Positions 1-5,339 of a stretch of 5,339 nt of DNA are shown here, piece after piece; position 1 is the first letter of the stretch, and every line of letters starts with the position of its first letter. Made by a program: the position numbers and the translations under genes. The DNA lies in IMG/VR virus record IMGVR_UViG_2548876867_000014. One strand, 5' to 3'. The stretch comes from a virus. Taxonomy: Duplodnaviria > Heunggongvirae > Uroviricota > Caudoviricetes. Below the pieces are notes generated by a model. The model did no database searches. It was not told the origin of the DNA and saw only the letters and a program-made list of their open reading frames with translations.

Positions 1-270
<270 letters not shown>

Positions 271-293
271 TTACCGTTAAATCATTTTAAAAT

Positions 294-340
294 CAGTAAG
301 TTGTATCGAGTTTGTATGCTTTACTGTCATTAACTTACTG
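294..340. repeat. 9-bp perfect inverted repeat CAGTAAGTT (294-302) / AACTTACTG (332-340) with iterated TGTAT motifs in the yfhL-int intergenic region
   Basis: Read directly: the arms are exact reverse complements separated by 29 bp. TTGTAT/TGTATG recurs at 301-306, 312-318, 339-344 and 354-358. Function is unknown; possibilities are integrase arm/core sites or an operator. Confidence 0.4.
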
Positions 341-355
341 TATGTTGATCCAGTG
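336..355. promoter_or_regulatory. LexA (SOS) box-like sequence TACTGTATGTTGATCCAGTG
   Basis: CTGT-N8-cCAG, satisfying the CTG-N10-CAG core. The left half TACTGTAT is identical to the E. coli LexA consensus half-site (TACTGTATATATATACAGTA, from memory); the right half matches 6/8. It lies about 75 bp upstream of the yfhL ATG and about 120 bp upstream of the int ATG. Sequence-only call. Confidence 0.25.
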
Positions 356-475
356 TATTTAACCTTGATAAACTCAGTCCAGCAACACAAAACCGCAACA
401 CATTGCATTTTGTCCCGTAGAAAAGACTTGTATGTGTGAGCTTGTTTTCTGCGCCTACGCAGATAAGGATTGAGA

Positions 476-1873
476 ATGCCGCGCACTGTAACACATAATC
501 CGGATAGCCCCAATAATGACGATGTTTTAGCCGCTTCTGAAAAATGGGACGCCTGTAAACCCCCCTATACCAGCGCACACATGAAAATCTGTGTTGCTGC
601 CGCCAAAATCATCCTCGCTGCTTCCGGCGTGGCTCGCCGTTCCAAATACGAAAAAGAGAACTATCTCCGTATCGATTTCAGCAAAGCCGGTAAGGTTACA
701 TTTTACGCCGAGTTTCCAAAAAAGATGGGCCTCAAAGGTAAAAAGCTCGGCGAGTGGCCGGAGCTCGCTATCCAGCTGGCGCGCGAAAAAGCACTAGGTA
801 TGGCTGACGGTGGACTGCGGGCAGAGTCCGTACATGCAGCGCTGGAAATGTACCGGGATGACCTCAAAGCCAAAGTAGCCCGTCAGAAGCTGAGCCCGGA
901 CAGTTTCACAACCTACGGGGTGCGTATCGACCGGATTAAATCAACGTTCGGCGAGCGCGAGGTGTTCGGCGACGTAACATACAGTCGGCTGGTGGAAGTG
1001 CTGGACGAGTGGATCGCCACTCGCTCGAACAATAACGCCCTGGAGTTGTTTGCCGAGCTCCGTCGGTTCTGGAAGTTCTGCGCACCTACTCTTTGCAACG
1101 GCCGCAATGTTGCCGCCAGTCTGCCAGATGATTATGTTTCCTCCCGCGTACAGAAACCTACCCCCACACGGCTTTTTACCGATATTGAATCAATCGCCCG
1201 ACTCTGGCTCAATGTTGCTGCCTGCACCTCTGTACACCAGAAGAATGCTGTTCGCTTCATGATCATCACTGGTGTTCGTCCGATTAATGTCCATAACCTG
1301 CGCTGGGACTACGTTCACGAGGAGGCTGGTGAAATTGTTTATCCGGAAGGGGTTATCGGCATGCGAGGGGCTATGAAAACACAAAAGGCTTTCCGCCTGC
1401 CGATAACGCCTGAGATCCGGCGGATTATCGACGAGCAGAAAGCCTGGCGTGATTCAGTTCCTGAGTGCAACAGGGATTATGTATTTTTGCAGCCACGTGA
1501 TCCAATGCAGCCATTTTCAAAACGATCACTGGATAAGCTGGTGAAAACATACAGCCCGGACGGGGCTGTAAAAGGAATAAAACATGATGGGACTGTTAAA
1601 GGGAAAGACGGTGCATTTAATACGATGTGCCGTAAATTCCTTAAGAGCAATGTTATTGCCTTGATGAAGGAAAGAGGCTATTCCCGCTCAGACCGAAGGG
1701 AAATCAGCCTCCTTTGCCTTCACCACTCCAGCAAGTCAGATGACCCGATGGCAGAACATTACGACTTTTCTGATGAGATTTTACAGGAAGAGATTGCGTT
1801 GAAGCGCGAAGCTTTCGAGGCTCACGAGCGGAGCATACTTGCGCAGGTGGCATTGCTACGGCGGCGAGGTTAA
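476..1873 (+). CDS. int: Tyrosine recombinase / phage integrase, P4-like with N-terminal arm-binding domain
   Basis: Long ORF with ATG at 476 preceded by AAGGA (465-469) and a 6-nt spacer; the ORF track starts at an in-frame TTG at 470. The N-terminal stretch YLRIDFSKAGKVTFYAEF...LGEWPELAIQLAREKA resembles the DUF4102-type arm-binding domain of P4-family integrases. The C-terminal half has recombinase-like segments (ITGVRPINVHNLRW; HHSSKSDDPMAEHYDF with a candidate catalytic Tyr). TAA at 1871-1873. Confidence 0.82.
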   Translation: MPRTVTHNPDSPNNDDVLAASEKWDACKPPYTSAHMKICVAAAKIILAASGVARRSKYEKENYLRIDFSKAGKVTFYAEFPKKMGLKGKKLGEWPELAIQLAREKALGMADGGLRAESVHAALEMYRDDLKAKVARQKLSPDSFTTYGVRIDRIKSTFGEREVFGDVTYSRLVEVLDEWIATRSNNNALELFAELRRFWKFCAPTLCNGRNVAASLPDDYVSSRVQKPTPTRLFTDIESIARLWLNVAACTSVHQKNAVRFMIITGVRPINVHNLRWDYVHEEAGEIVYPEGVIGMRGAMKTQKAFRLPITPEIRRIIDEQKAWRDSVPECNRDYVFLQPRDPMQPFSKRSLDKLVKTYSPDGAVKGIKHDGTVKGKDGAFNTMCRKFLKSNVIALMKERGYSRSDRREISLLCLHHSSKSDDPMAEHYDFSDEILQEEIALKREAFEAHERSILAQVALLRRRG

Positions 1874-2070
1874 TACTGGCTGCGACATTTTTGAATAAAA
1901 GCGTCGACATTTCGGCGCTCATAACGAACTACTTTTGCACTGAAACGAATTGGTGCCAGGATAGCCCGATGACGATGCTTAATATTCAACTCACATAGCG
2001 TTTTCTGTGTAATACCTAACTTTTGGCATACTTCATCCGGGGTGAGTAAATCGTCGGGTTTCTCGCTCAT
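1870..2070 (-). CDS. AlpA/excisionase-family helix-turn-helix protein (putative Xis or small regulator)
   Basis: 66-codon ORF. LLTPDEVCQKLGITQKTL is the HTH typical of AlpA/Xis-type phage proteins. Its ATG (2070..2068) overlaps the helicase TGA (ATGA at 2067-2070), and its TAA (1872..1870) overlaps the integrase TAA (TTAA at 1870-1873). Confidence 0.72.
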   Translation of the reverse strand: MSEKPDDLLTPDEVCQKLGITQKTLCELNIKHRHRAILAPIRFSAKVVRYERRNVDAFIQKCRSQY

Positions 2071-3458
2071 GCTATACCTCTCTTTTTCATGGCATCGAGC
2101 AGGATGTCCTGCACTGTTCGTTTTGAGTTGCGCCGCTCCATCACCATTTCGTCCATAGTGTCGGCAGCAATAATGTGGTGAATAAATACCGGACGATTGT
2201 GTCCGGCCTGTATCTGTCTGGTTGGGCCGATACGTTCAATAATTTGCTGATATTGCTCCAGGTCCCACCAGTGTGAGAAAAATACCAGTATATTTCCGCC
2301 GTCCTGCATGTTCAGGCCGTGGCCCGCGCTGGCTGGGTGTGCAAAGAGAACAGGAATCTTTCCGGAATTCCAGTCGCGCAGTGTCTGTGGAGCCTGGTCG
2401 AGGTGACGACCGCGAGGGAATGCTTTAAGCAAGCGTTCAAGATCGTGTTTCCAGTGATAAGCAACCAGCACAGGTGCGCCAGCTGCTTCGGTCAGTATGC
2501 TGTCCAGCGCCTGTAGTTTGGTGTCATGCAGTTCTGACCAACTTCCGGTGTCATCTGTGTATACTGCGCCGCTGGCGATTTGCAGACACTTCAGTGTCTT
2601 TGCCGCGGCGTTCGGTGCTTCGATGCCTTCGCCATTCAGCTCGAGGAACATTTCCTTTTCCATTTCACGATACTGCTGACGGGCCTTCGGCGGCATATCC
2701 ACGCGGATTACGTTATGGATGGGGTCTTTGATATCGAACCAGTCGGCCGCATCCAGCGAGAGGGTCACATCGGCTAACGCTCGCTGTATTTCACCCTGTG
2801 AGTGAGCAAAAGGCTCCAGTTTGGTCCAGCTCTGCCCCGGAAACTGTATCGATTTGAACCAGCGTGAGGTAAACGCGCCGTAAGTGCGCCCGAGACGTTG
2901 CCCCTGGTCCACAAACCACGATTGTCCCCACAAATCTACCAGGCCGTTCGGTGCTGGCGTACCGGTGAGATTTATCCAGCGCCGGACATACTTGTGCGCC
3001 ACTTTGCCCAGCGCCGCCGCGCGCTTACCACCACCTCGCAGCCGGAAGGATTTTAGCCGGGTGCTTTCATCTGGAATGACAGTACCGAACGACCATCGTT
3101 CTCCCAATTCTTCAACCAGCCAGACAAGGTTATCGTAGTTGATTGTGAACACGCTCGCGTTGCTGTTCGCCAGCGCTGTAGAGCGCGCTTTGGCGTTACC
3201 GATGATCGGCTGTACCTCAATATTACGCAGATGCCCCCATTTAACAGCTTCATCAGGCCAAGTGCTTGCTGCAACGCGTAGCGGCGCGAGGACCAGCGCG
3301 GGGCGTGTTTCTGCTCCAGCCATGAAAAGATCTTCCAGCGTGGTGAGTGTCGCTACGGTTTTACCCATCCCCATCCCTGCCCAGATGTTGCCGCGCAGGG
3401 TCTCGATTTGATGATTGATGATGAGATCTTGGTAGGGACGTGGTTTAAAAGTTATCAT
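2067..3458 (-). CDS. SNF2/RAD54-family DNA helicase/ATPase (phage replication-recombination module)
   Basis: 463-codon ORF with ordered motifs: RPYQ (Q motif, residues 7-10), GMGKT (Walker A), DEST (motif II, DExx), LTGTPAPN (motif III), and a C-terminal lobe with QQIIERIGPTRQ (motif VI-like). Start ATG at 3458 is preceded by AGGGA about 8 nt upstream on the - strand. Confidence 0.85.
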   Translation of the reverse strand: MITFKPRPYQDLIINHQIETLRGNIWAGMGMGKTVATLTTLEDLFMAGAETRPALVLAPLRVAASTWPDEAVKWGHLRNIEVQPIIGNAKARSTALANSNASVFTINYDNLVWLVEELGERWSFGTVIPDESTRLKSFRLRGGGKRAAALGKVAHKYVRRWINLTGTPAPNGLVDLWGQSWFVDQGQRLGRTYGAFTSRWFKSIQFPGQSWTKLEPFAHSQGEIQRALADVTLSLDAADWFDIKDPIHNVIRVDMPPKARQQYREMEKEMFLELNGEGIEAPNAAAKTLKCLQIASGAVYTDDTGSWSELHDTKLQALDSILTEAAGAPVLVAYHWKHDLERLLKAFPRGRHLDQAPQTLRDWNSGKIPVLFAHPASAGHGLNMQDGGNILVFFSHWWDLEQYQQIIERIGPTRQIQAGHNRPVFIHHIIAADTMDEMVMERRNSKRTVQDILLDAMKKRGIA

Positions 3459-3481
3459 GAAGAAAATCCCTGATTAGAAAG

Positions 3482-4207
3482 GTGCTCTTGAACATCATGA
3501 ATGTAAAAGATTTATCAATTACAACGGTTCTCTTGGCCGCCCTTTATTTTATGGCTTTTTCTTTTTACAAAGGGTACAGCTCATTTTATGGATTCCCTGT
3601 AAGTTTTATTTCTATTGGGATTGAGGAAATAGTTAAATTTTCTGTTATTGCATTAGGACTTTTGTGCACCTTAGTCGCTTTGCTGCATATTGATACTGAA
3701 GAGAAGAATATTCCATGGTGGGTGTATTTATTTTTCTTCATTTTGGCCTCTTTGCTTTCATACTGGACAATGTATTTATATGGCGGTAGCTCATACCTTT
3801 ATGAAAAATCCATAAGGGATGTGGCTACCCAAGCAATACTGTTGGGATTTATTAGCCCTATCAGTGTCAGGGCAGTATCTGTTTTTATTAGGAATGAATT
3901 TAGAATAAAAAACAAAACTCATGGGGTTATGCTTTTTATATCCATAGCAATGCTTCCTTCAGTCCTTGGGTGGGCATGGGCATACTTATCAGATGAGCCT
4001 CTTTTTTATTCTAAAAAATATGATGCTTATATTATCGAAAGCTATAACGGAAAATTTGTCTTGGGGAACTGTAAAAAAAATAGCTCTGAATTTATGAGTG
4101 TCGAAGGAATTGAGGGGAAATTAATTCCTGTAAGCATAAAAGAAACACAACAACTAAAAGTATGTTTTTTAAAAGCTTCTAAGCTCAAGAAAAATCGCTC
4201 AGAATGA
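3482..4207 (+). CDS. Hypothetical multi-pass membrane protein, AT-rich moron; no recognisable catalytic motif
   Basis: ORF on the strand opposite to all flanking phage genes. Start is GTG 3482 or more likely ATG 3497 (MNVKDL...). Hand counts of sample 60-nt stretches give about one-third G+C (3541-3600), against about 65% in a helicase sample (3001-3060). About five hydrophobic segments: LSITTVLLAALYFMAFSFY, FSVIALGLLCTLVALLHI, IPWWVYLFFFILASLLSYWTMYLY, AILLGFISPISVRAVSVFI, GVMLFISIAMLPSVLGWAWAYL. These are followed by a roughly 70-aa hydrophilic, Lys-rich C-terminal region. Stop TGA at 4205-4207, 5 bp from the convergent VRR-NUC stop. Confidence 0.6.
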   Translation: MLLNIMNVKDLSITTVLLAALYFMAFSFYKGYSSFYGFPVSFISIGIEEIVKFSVIALGLLCTLVALLHIDTEEKNIPWWVYLFFFILASLLSYWTMYLYGGSSYLYEKSIRDVATQAILLGFISPISVRAVSVFIRNEFRIKNKTHGVMLFISIAMLPSVLGWAWAYLSDEPLFYSKKYDAYIIESYNGKFVLGNCKKNSSEFMSVEGIEGKLIPVSIKETQQLKVCFLKASKLKKNRSE

Positions 4208-4212
4208 TTGTC

Positions 4213-4482
4213 TCACAATATCCCCTCTAAATTTTTGCTATCCAGCACCACCACGGTAAAGCCCAGTTTTCGCAGACGTTCATGTTCGCGCAACTGGTCA
4301 GGCCGTGGTGGCTTGCCGGGAGATTTACATTCAACGAAAACGATACGACCGCCTGGTAGCAGGACAATGCGATCCGGTACCGAGCGGTGACCGGGAGATA
4401 CAAACTTAAAGGCCACTCCGCCAGCTTTTTTCACTTCAGCGACGAGGTGCTTTTCGATAAGGCTTTCACGTTCATAGGCCAT
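4213..4482 (-). CDS. VRR-NUC domain nuclease (PD-(D/E)xK superfamily)
   Basis: Signature SVPDRIVLL...IVFVECK (PD...E-x-K) followed by QLREHERLRKLGFTVVV, typical of VRR-NUC proteins. Start taken as ATG 4482 (MAYERE...), which overlaps the end of the upstream gene by 11 nt; an alternative in-frame ATG lies at 4509. Stop TGA at 4215..4213. Confidence 0.8.
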   Translation of the reverse strand: MAYERESLIEKHLVAEVKKAGGVAFKFVSPGHRSVPDRIVLLPGGRIVFVECKSPGKPPRPDQLREHERLRKLGFTVVVLDSKNLEGIL

Positions 4483-4771
4483 CTGAATCCCACTCTTCAA
4501 AAAGCACATTCAATTCCAGTTTCTCTGCCAACGCGTTTTCTGCACGTGCGCCAGCAGAGTACTCCCACTCTTTGAGCATATAAATCGTATCGGCACAGCG
4601 AAGCATTGCGAGGCAGATGTCCATGTACTGAGCCTGTGTCAAACCATTGGGTAAAGTTGCGGGGTTAAGCACAACATATCCCTTGTCCGTTAGCCTTTTT
4701 GCTGCGGAATGAAAGGCCGGGCGGTTAAATTGCTCGTAACCGCTCATCGGCCCGGCAACGTAAACGATCAT
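4472..4771 (-). CDS. DUF4406-like protein (nucleoside 2-deoxyribosyltransferase-like fold)
   Basis: 99-codon ORF. The N-terminus MIVYVAGPMSGYEQFNRPAF and overall size resemble DUF4406 proteins that I recall from phage genomes (memory-based, not searched). Its ATG overlaps the stop of the upstream ORF (ATGA at 4768-4771). Confidence 0.65.
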   Translation of the reverse strand: MIVYVAGPMSGYEQFNRPAFHSAAKRLTDKGYVVLNPATLPNGLTQAQYMDICLAMLRCADTIYMLKEWEYSAGARAENALAEKLELNVLFEEWDSDGL

Positions 4772-4983
4772 TCTTCGACCGCCTTACGCTTTTCACGCAT
4801 GTTCTGCATCAGGCAAAAATCAGATCTGCGTTCACTCCATTCCTGATTCAGTTCGTGATGTGATTCGCGGTTGGCTTTTGCCCAGACCTCCGCTGCCCGG
4901 TCATATTCGCCGGATTGTTCAAGTCGCAAAGCTTCCCTTGCAGCCCTGTAATAAAGTGGATTGTCCCGGTATTTAAATGACAT
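4768..4983 (-). CDS. Small hypothetical protein, tentatively ANR-family (AraC-negative-regulator, Aar-like)
   Basis: 71-codon ORF. The pattern A..EALRLEQSGEY..AAEVWAKA...N.EW..RR.DFC resembles small ANR-family proteins as I recall them. AAGGA lies 9 nt upstream of the ATG on the - strand. It is translationally coupled to the downstream gene. Family assignment is tentative. Confidence 0.5.
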   Translation of the reverse strand: MSFKYRDNPLYYRAAREALRLEQSGEYDRAAEVWAKANRESHHELNQEWSERRSDFCLMQNMREKRKAVEE

Positions 4984-4988
4984 AGGAG

Positions 4989-5339
4989 TTAATCCTTACG
5001 GTAGTGGTACGCCTCAAAACCGCCAGCGTTCAGTGGGATATCGGGCGCCCATTCGGGGTTAGTGGAGAGAAGTGCGGAAAGCGCTTTATCGTTGAAATCT
5101 TCTGTGTCAGGTGCTTCGGTGATCACCTCGTCGTGTACCGTCAGCACAATGCTGTAACCGGCATCTTCGATAAGCGGCATGTTTCCGGCCAGAATGTCGC
5201 GGGCGGCCGCCTGGGTGATGTTCTCCACCAGCTTTCCGCCGTAGGTTTTGAGTCGTTGCCATTTACGCGAATAAGAGTTAACCCCTAGACTGGCCCCCTG
5301 AATCTCCAGACAACCAGTATCACTTAAATAAGTGATAGT
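4989..5339 (-). CDS. Family-A DNA polymerase, C-terminal fragment (N-terminus lies beyond the window edge)
   Basis: The - strand frame is open from 5339 with no stop until TAA at 4991..4989, so the GTG at 5228 in the ORF track is probably internal. The C-terminus [11 protein letters not shown]...[15 protein letters not shown]...[17 protein letters not shown] aligns by eye with E. coli Pol I (recalled from memory: QGTAADIIK...MIMQVHDELVFE...DVPLLVEVGSGENWDQAH), including the motif C HDE. Confidence 0.62.

Follow-up and report, generated by a model that had tools for sequence, protein, structure and literature searches.

What is a single AT-rich gene for a membrane protein doing on the opposite strand of a phage early operon? 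The question is raised by a stretch of 5,339 nucleotides (IMG/VR virus record IMGVR_UViG_2548876867_000014, Caudoviricetes), hereafter the window, in which one open reading frame (ORF) of the + strand, hereafter the target, lies between the genes for an SNF2-family helicase and a VRR-NUC nuclease (Table 1). A first-pass annotation made from the letters alone took the target for a moron expressed in the lysogen. We believe that the comparative part of this reading is adequately supported: the target appears to be a single-gene cargo cassette (moron) in a recombination hotspot of the early module of an APSE-like temperate phage, between SNF2 and VRR-NUC. As to function, we tentatively propose that its product would shield the lysogen from other phages at the envelope.

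Is the target a gene at all? Pairwise ratios of nonsynonymous to synonymous substitution rates (dN/dS) among five orthologues (from Escherichia coli, Salmonella, Enterobacter, the thrips symbiont BFo2 and a metagenome) range from 0.08 to 0.31: the target is a real gene under purifying selection. Identical loci are annotated in RefSeq (WP_001101052.1 and WP_001101051.1), and no - strand ORF longer than 51 amino acids overlaps the target. An alternative in-frame GTG at 3482 would add 5 residues, giving 241; the homologues all begin with MNxKDL. The composition had been put by hand count at about one-third G+C, and the measured values agree: 0.342 for the whole gene and 0.316 at third codon positions, compared with 0.542 for the SNF2 gene and 0.505 for the VRR-NUC gene. 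In a sliding window, G+C is 0.295-0.39 within 3401-4200 and 0.48-0.59 outside, with a sharp fall at both borders. The distances to the neighbours given at the outset hold as well: 5 bp separate the target stop from the VRR-NUC stop codon (4213-4215), and, counted from the end of the helicase start codon (3458), the ATG is 38 bp away and the GTG 23 bp.

Does the position of the target tell us anything about its nature? The relatives of the module were gathered via the helicase and comprise 36 loci of other species and six E. coli loci; the slot is understood as the interval from the VRR-NUC stop to the SNF2 start. It is 23-25 bp long in distant relatives (a Dongia metagenome-assembled genome and one further such genome), about 180-210 bp in Pantoea stewartii and Erwinia tracheiphila, and 0.36-3.2 kb elsewhere, the range for the Enterobacterales being 0.18-3.2 kb. 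What fills it is variable. On the opposite strand, E. coli O103:H2 12009 and 96_1414B carry BstA (PADLOC E=2.5e-110), an experimentally validated prophage abortive-infection protein (PMC8585504). The slot of E. coli STEFF_1 holds the candidate defence gene PDC-S42 (PADLOC E=6e-40). Other opposite-strand cargo includes DUF6338 membrane proteins in Morganella morganii (L021) and Trabulsiella guamensis (L033; Pfam E=1e-30), ORFs of 163-170 amino acids in Pluralibacter and Xenorhabdus that have a hydrophobic segment at the N-terminus, and a soluble protein of 106 amino acids in E. coli E62 and Pectobacterium. Cargo of this orientation is usually AT-rich. The slot of Providencia holds a TIR-like protein (a weak match, E=2e-5). 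On the operon strand we find Dcm-type methyltransferases and Rha/antirepressor modules; the loci with Rha also have an Arc-type repressor pair, one member of which is on the opposite strand. The slot of APSE-2 is occupied by the regulators G, P43 and P42.

Between prophages with different cargo, homology breaks within the first three to five codons of SNF2. The N-terminus of the helicase follows the cargo (3440-3458 of the window; loci L002-L006): it reads MITFKPRPYQ with the target and is of other types with BstA, PDC-S42 and the rest, and therefore the cassette recombines at a boundary within the coding sequence of the helicase. In the searchable literature the SNF2/VRR-NUC hotspot was not found described before, and Hochhauser 2023 makes no mention of the site. 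It was also considered whether the slot is the toxin cassette of APSE phages; this was rejected, as the APSE-2 slot holds the three regulators just named, and the APSE genomics paper places the toxin genes in a different module (module 3).

Several side observations concern the cargo itself. In STEFF_1 (L003:2819-4492), PDC-S42 is followed by two small ORFs of the same strand (82 and 176-189 amino acids) with no family match, the first of them with a hydrophobic N-terminus; PDC-S42 may here be part of a three-gene unit. The DUF6338 proteins of the slot have a G+C of 0.32-0.37 and are hydrophobic over their first ~100 residues; they make up a second uncharacterised cargo family, to which the target is not related by profile comparison (hhalign probability 0.06%). 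The same module has a second position with defence cargo, between the DNA polymerase and ANR/VRR-NUC, where the TIR-domain PDC-S35 (PADLOC E ~1e-108) is found in phage vB_EcoM-611R5 (L060:4518-5279) and at L057:8954-9715. Variable content is found at a third place too: the interval from the DNA polymerase to the DUF2815/Enc34 single-stranded-DNA-binding gene contains unrelated opposite-strand ORFs of 170-230 amino acids (L001:16329-16958, L003:7398-8087, L004:7367-7966, L013:7045-7680); these gave no PADLOC match and may be further cargo.

How widespread is the target, and how long has it been there? Its DNA is present in 22 of the 5426 complete E. coli genomes (0.4%), always at an identity of at least 99%, while the neighbouring segment from VRR-NUC to the polymerase is found in 159 of them; the listed carriers include human strains of the enterohaemorrhagic and enteropathogenic (EHEC/EPEC) type, e.g., O55:H7 and O111:H11. 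None of the 36 loci of other species fetched via the helicase has the target. Homologues in the same slot were nonetheless found in Salmonella (67% identity; with a different integrase and an attachment site by proA), in the BFo2 symbiont (74%), in metagenome contigs (48%) and in six IMG/VR viral contigs (51-98%), and Enterobacter cloacae has a degraded copy. From the homologue to the helicase start the distance is 38 bp at the majority of loci; three of the IMG/VR contigs have 44 bp. A degraded prophage, which carries PDC-S35 as well, has a relative of only 23% identity in this slot. Two other distant relatives are located elsewhere: one beside the integrase of a different prophage, the other in an island beside a YafO toxin-antitoxin pair.

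At every locus examined the alleles have a G+C of 0.34-0.38, compared with 0.47-0.56 in the flanks. The identity of the target is incongruent with that of the helicase; at L012, for instance, SNF2 is 94% identical and the target 48%, which indicates allele exchange or fast evolution. With alleles of 23-98% identity sharing one slot, the target is an old resident of it and not a recent one-off acquisition. A comparison with related prophages had been proposed along with the first-pass annotation; in 30 or more related loci, the slot holds other genes or the helicase and VRR-NUC genes are adjacent. Conservation of the ORF in all related phages with a matching G+C, which would have spoken against a moron, was not observed, given 22 genomes against 159 and an AT-rich composition in every host examined. 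The reading as a moron stands in that the target is facultative cargo at a fixed position with deviant composition, and its comparative definition is supported; its expression in the lysogen and its function are putative.

What kind of protein is encoded? The expectation of about five transmembrane (TM) segments is confirmed by hydrophobic stretches at residues ~6-24, 45-64, 73-95, 110-131 and 143-164, which match the five long helices of an AlphaFold2 model built from a 14-sequence alignment (predicted local distance difference test, pLDDT, 83.9; predicted template modelling score, pTM, 0.83). The helices of the model span 8-31, 42-63, 74-95, 106-132 and 140-164; then come a beta unit of five strands (170-211) and, at the C-terminus, a further helix (214-235). 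The 72-residue C-terminal part holds 13 lysines and arginines. It had been described as a Lys-rich soluble tail; its solubility is upheld, but it is not read as a cytoplasmic tail, this part being folded in the model into a small beta-barrel with a helix and predicted to be periplasmic. The latter is deduced from loop charges: the mean number of Lys+Arg is 5.8 for the N-terminus with loops 2 and 4, compared with 1.75 for loops 1 and 3, the former exceeding the latter in each of the 40 family members. By the positive-inside rule, the N-terminus is predicted to be cytoplasmic and the C-terminal domain periplasmic. The inner-membrane location is likewise a prediction, from the five hydrophobic helices and this charge pattern in the 40 relatives.

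Conservation is distributed unevenly over this architecture. In the 40-member alignment, in which identity to the window protein goes down to 16-25%, the only invariant columns are Cys192 (codon 4070-4072) and Cys223 (4163-4165). Near-invariant are Y17, G26, G32, P34, I38 and G158. Residues 26-38, in the predicted periplasmic loop 1, form the conserved motif GYSxFYG(F/Y)PxxFI, and G158-W159 is conserved at the outer end of TM5. By region, three parts stand out as conserved: loop 1 together with TM1's outer half, the end of TM5 on the outer side, and the C-terminal domain. Conservation is low in TM2-TM4 and in the cytoplasmic loops. We infer that the functional surface of the protein would face the periplasm. 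Cys192 is in a beta strand and Cys223 in the C-terminal helix, and a disulfide between them probably staples the barrel and the helix together.

Has this family been described under another name? A word-indexed search of 5.8 billion proteins returned 18 clusters, all named hypothetical or "membrane protein", and a second such search with the 40-sequence profile brought no new names; an exhaustive profile search of 1.84 billion representatives returned 37 clusters only. The members are mostly ~228-265 amino acids long and match over nearly the full length, apart from a few fragments of 71-143 amino acids, and the full-length architecture is retained down to ~17% identity. No motif had been recognised at the outset, and the target has indeed no match in Pfam, PHROG (none at E<0.1), PADLOC or NCBIfam. 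Pfam on all 40 members gave scattered single weak matches only and nothing consistent, NCBIfam on four members gave no match, and no family of PADLOC-DB v2.0.0 (including BstA, RexAB, PD-T4, PD-lambda and PDC) matched at E up to 1. Among PDB sequences, a profile search yielded only chance TM matches (E at least 0.19); Foldseek against the BFVD viral structures yielded nothing at E<0.5, and in tblastn neither the 50,697 phage records nor the 72,556 plasmids gave a match. For the C-terminal domain, the Sm/SH3-like small beta-barrels, MazF/CcdB/Kid included, were taken for comparison; no fold search returned a match that could be used, and a MazF/CcdB/Kid toxin fold was discarded, neither a significant match of the core nor a cytoplasmic location having been found. 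Four RefSeq accessions of the family, including the protein of E. coli O55:H7 CB9615 (99.6% identical to that of the window), appear nowhere in the searchable literature, nor in 12 text-form supplementary files of DefensePredictor. No housekeeping function was found among the homologues.

Can the target be expressed against the operon? We presume that it has a promoter of its own, from which the prophage would transcribe it in the direction opposite to the early operon. The candidate promoter listed in Table 1 lies within the first ten codons of SNF2, its -10 hexamer overlapping the SNF2 start codon; the loci of Salmonella, BFo2 and Enterobacter (L009, L010 and L007) have retained the two hexamers, and the -35 falls within conserved coding sequence. 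The intergenic region that follows is conserved in the orthologous loci of the same three and contains a Shine-Dalgarno-like element, GAAAGG, at 3477-3482, 14-19 nt upstream of the ATG. To get to SNF2 and xis, transcription of the early - strand operon has to pass the cassette in antisense; lytic transcription and that of the cassette should therefore interfere, presumably both ways.

A possible switch is suggested by the A8 homopolymer directly after the codon of Cys192. E. coli 97-3250, A34 and the IMG/VR contig L063 have A9 instead, and the frame ends after residue 195 with the loss of Cys223 and the C-terminal helix. The slot is 755 or 756 bp long, in place of 754 bp, in no fewer than 11 of the 22 copies in E. 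coli; eight further complete genomes have the same slot length (755 bp) and identity as 97-3250, and the slot of O111:H11 strain 8D is also 755 bp. A9 occurs on at least two single-nucleotide-polymorphism (SNP) backgrounds. The copy in the window is intact (A8), and the orthologues of other genera are without the tract. A9 could have arisen by phase variation, by recurrent inactivation or, in some assemblies, as a homopolymer sequencing error.

How does the target compare with known systems? T4 Imm disturbs the step of DNA delivery. P22 SieA, a prophage-expressed inner-membrane protein, likewise blocks DNA delivery at the periplasm and inner membrane (PMC10883804). The target resembles SieA in being a single prophage gene for a (predicted) inner-membrane protein that is facultative among related phages and exists in highly divergent sequence types. 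It differs in sequence (hhalign probability 0.1%; no PHROG match), in build and in location: SieA has 164 amino acids and is encoded in the late region of P22 beside gene 16, whereas the target has 236 amino acids, five TM helices with a beta-barrel, and a place in the early module. With SieB of P22 and lambda it shares the arrangement of an opposite-strand gene inside the early operon; according to the P22 annotation, sieB has its own promoter in the early-left operon and is expressed by the prophage. However, the hhalign probability is 0.2%, and SieB acts after infection (abortively) and needs the self-immunity product Esc, whereas no internal second product was detected in the target. In sister prophages of E. 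coli, BstA is found in exactly this slot and in the orientation of the target, but it is a soluble DNA-binding protein of ~310 amino acids with aba self-immunity and has no sequence similarity to the target. Finally, the defence hotspots of P2 and P4 (Rousset et al., bioRxiv 10.1101/2021.01.21.427644) are similar in that unrelated, often AT-rich defence genes are swapped at a fixed position of a temperate phage; here the phage family and the position are different, and defence genes are mixed with regulators and methyltransferases. The target can be described as an uncharacterised protein family in what seems to be a known kind of role, lying outside each of the sequence families tested.

On these grounds we propose the following. 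The target would be a polytopic inner-membrane protein of five TM helices whose conserved features face the periplasm, and it would act at the envelope; most likely, the passage of an incoming genome across the periplasm and inner membrane would be disturbed (superinfection exclusion, as with P22 SieA or T4 Imm). An anti-phage function at the envelope is a tentative proposal, to which we give somewhat less than an even chance; a block of entry specifically is a little less likely still. The widest form of the proposal, that the target represents a new family of single-gene periplasm-facing anti-phage proteins of the inner membrane (a five-TM bundle with a disulfide-stapled small barrel), that the SNF2/VRR-NUC junction of APSE-like prophages is an undescribed defence hotspot of the Enterobacterales, with BstA, PDC-S42, DUF6338 and other membrane proteins beside the target, and that A8 serves as an on/off switch, is possible as a whole, though we would rather doubt it.

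A number of points weigh against this proposal. Neither sequence nor fold comparison connected the protein with a known exclusion or defence protein (PHROGs, PADLOC, hhalign with SieA, SieB and DUF6338, BFVD, PDB). The frameshift affects about half of the E. coli copies, and a function lost so frequently would often be dispensable. The argument from position is weak because the slot also carries non-defence cargo (regulators, methyltransferases). As to expression, the promoter scan found fewer sites than in shuffled sequence, a site with 9/12 matches is no better than chance, and no intrinsic terminator follows the target ORF; a gene of 34% G+C could moreover be silenced by H-NS. The CB9615 prophage has a myovirus-type virion, and the analogy with SieA and the ejection proteins of P22 is not directly transferable and concerns function alone; an analogy of self-exclusion with these proteins was considered and dropped on account of the myovirus-type tail genes of that prophage.

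Could the protein act on the infected cell rather than on entry? As an abortive-infection effector, it would sense the perturbation of the envelope by a phage with its periplasmic domain, and the five-helix bundle would depolarise or permeabilise the inner membrane, killing the cell before phage release. The presence of BstA in the same slot of sister prophages agrees with this, frequent frameshifts are to be expected of a potentially toxic gene, and polytopic membrane effectors are generally known to be common in such systems (e.g., RexB, mentioned in PMC8585504). We nevertheless consider it unlikely: known membrane effectors as a rule depend on a separate sensor (RexA in the case of RexB), and here the slot is single-gene; that TM2-TM4 are less conserved than any other part of the protein is unexpected for a pore; and no PADLOC effector model matches. 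Nor does lysogenic conversion not aimed at phage seem likely, i.e., an orphan immunity to a membrane-targeting bacteriocin or to a toxin of contact-dependent inhibition (CDI) or of the type VI secretion system (T6SS), or a modifier of the envelope (lipopolysaccharide, LPS; peptidoglycan; an inner-membrane transporter) that would serve host fitness or colonisation. A polytopic membrane protein that is AT-rich, conserved on its periplasmic face and not accompanied by a partner gene would suit such a role, as would the distant relative in a non-phage accessory island beside the YafO pair and the EHEC/EPEC-type carriers O55:H7 and O111:H11. It is disfavoured, however, by the want of similarity to known immunity families, Gtr, Oac, acyl- or glycosyltransferases and of a toxin gene nearby, and by the fact that nearly all members with readable context sit in prophage early regions.

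The frameshifts raise the further question of whether the target does anything at present. It could be a decaying or functionless passenger kept by recombination in the hotspot, with little current benefit in E. coli, as the A8-to-A9 change or other indels in at least 11 of the 22 complete genomes (on more than one SNP background), its rarity (0.4% of complete genomes) and the damage by IS2 to the polymerase gene of the window's own prophage might suggest. The dN/dS of 0.08-0.31 across genera, the full-length architecture retained to ~17% identity, the two invariant cysteines and the intact copy in the window speak to the contrary, and we regard this as quite improbable. Still less probable is a role that benefits the phage in lytic growth or establishment (a membrane anchor, lysis timing or counter-defence) by a gene transcribed apart from the early operon: the long tie to one phage module, with alleles of 23-98% identity in the same slot, would fit it, but most members of the phage family lack the gene and have unrelated ones in its place, and it is antisense to the early operon, the transcription of which should interfere, and lies outside the lysis module.

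The wider setting of the target is as follows (Table 1). The window is E. coli chromosome with the left end of a prophage integrated beside yfhL, which is also a reported insertion site of Stx2b prophages (PMC12029490). The gene order int, xis, helicase, nuclease, polymerase is that of "module 1" of the Hamiltonella APSE phages, and the helicase shares 74% identity with APSE P41 and 72% with its counterpart in Yersinia phage YeP4. The VRR_NUC match in Pfam (E=0.001) is under Pfam's curated cutoff; the name is also given by the RefSeq annotation. Translational coupling of the - strand genes, assumed in the first-pass annotation, is consistent with their overlapping or abutting ends (2067-2070, 4768-4771). 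Two of its statements have to be corrected: the target is not the only phage gene outside the - strand, the integrase being on the + strand too, and the - strand genes measure 43-55% G+C and not 55-65%. Rfam and tRNA scans of the window gave no matches.

The left end of IS2 (IS3 family) was observed at 5286-5339, cutting the polymerase gene at 5285/5286; these 54 bp match thousands of sites in E. coli genomes. Because IS2 sits in the polymerase gene, the prophage copy in the window is probably replication-defective. In E. coli O55:H7 CB9615, the same early module is joined to myovirus-type virion genes in a complete prophage of ~41 kb. This prophage (L071, 3150000-3190500) lies between yfhL and yfhH and is a mosaic of the APSE-like early module and the myovirus-type virion genes.

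Table 1. Features of the window, in order of position; the target and its parts lie between 3429 and 4212
Feature	Position	Strand	Remarks
yfhL	1-261	-	
Tyrosine integrase	470-1873	+	
Helix-turn-helix (HTH)/excisionase-like gene	1870-2070	-	
SNF2-family helicase, APSE P41 homologue, left flank of the slot	2067-3458	-	Pfam SNF2-rel_dom E=9e-12
Candidate sigma-70-like promoter, TTGGTA-18-TATCAT	3429-3458	+	9/12 matches; only + strand match upstream
Divergent intergenic region, probable 5' untranslated region	3459-3496	+	38 bp
Target coding sequence, 236 amino acids, ATG start, stop TGA 4205-4207	3497-4207	+	RefSeq start in identical loci
Predicted five-helix TM region, residues ~6-164	3512-3988	+	Hydropathy, AlphaFold2 helices
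C-terminal domain, residues 165-236, small beta-barrel and helix, predicted periplasmic	3989-4204	+	
A8 homopolymer directly after the Cys192 codon	4073-4080	+	
Gap between convergent stops, right boundary of the cargo slot	4208-4212	.	5 bp
VRR-NUC nuclease, APSE P44 homologue, right flank of the slot	4213-4509	-	4213-4482 with the RefSeq start
DUF4406	4472-4771	-	
PerC/ANR regulator	4768-4983	-	
Family-A DNA polymerase, C-terminal part	4989 onward	-	

What would follow from these observations? If the target has no anti-phage activity, it is an ordinary orphan moron, of which many exist. If it does exclude phages, it would be a structurally new single-gene exclusion factor acting at the envelope, where few such factors have been characterised (SieA, Imm, Sie2009, Ltp), and one carried by clinically relevant E. 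coli, including O55:H7 and O111:H11. Independently of the function of the target, one junction in a widespread module (that of APSE, YeP4 and BPP-1 relatives) swaps BstA, PDC-S42, TIR-like and membrane proteins, and this hotspot could be mined for further systems.

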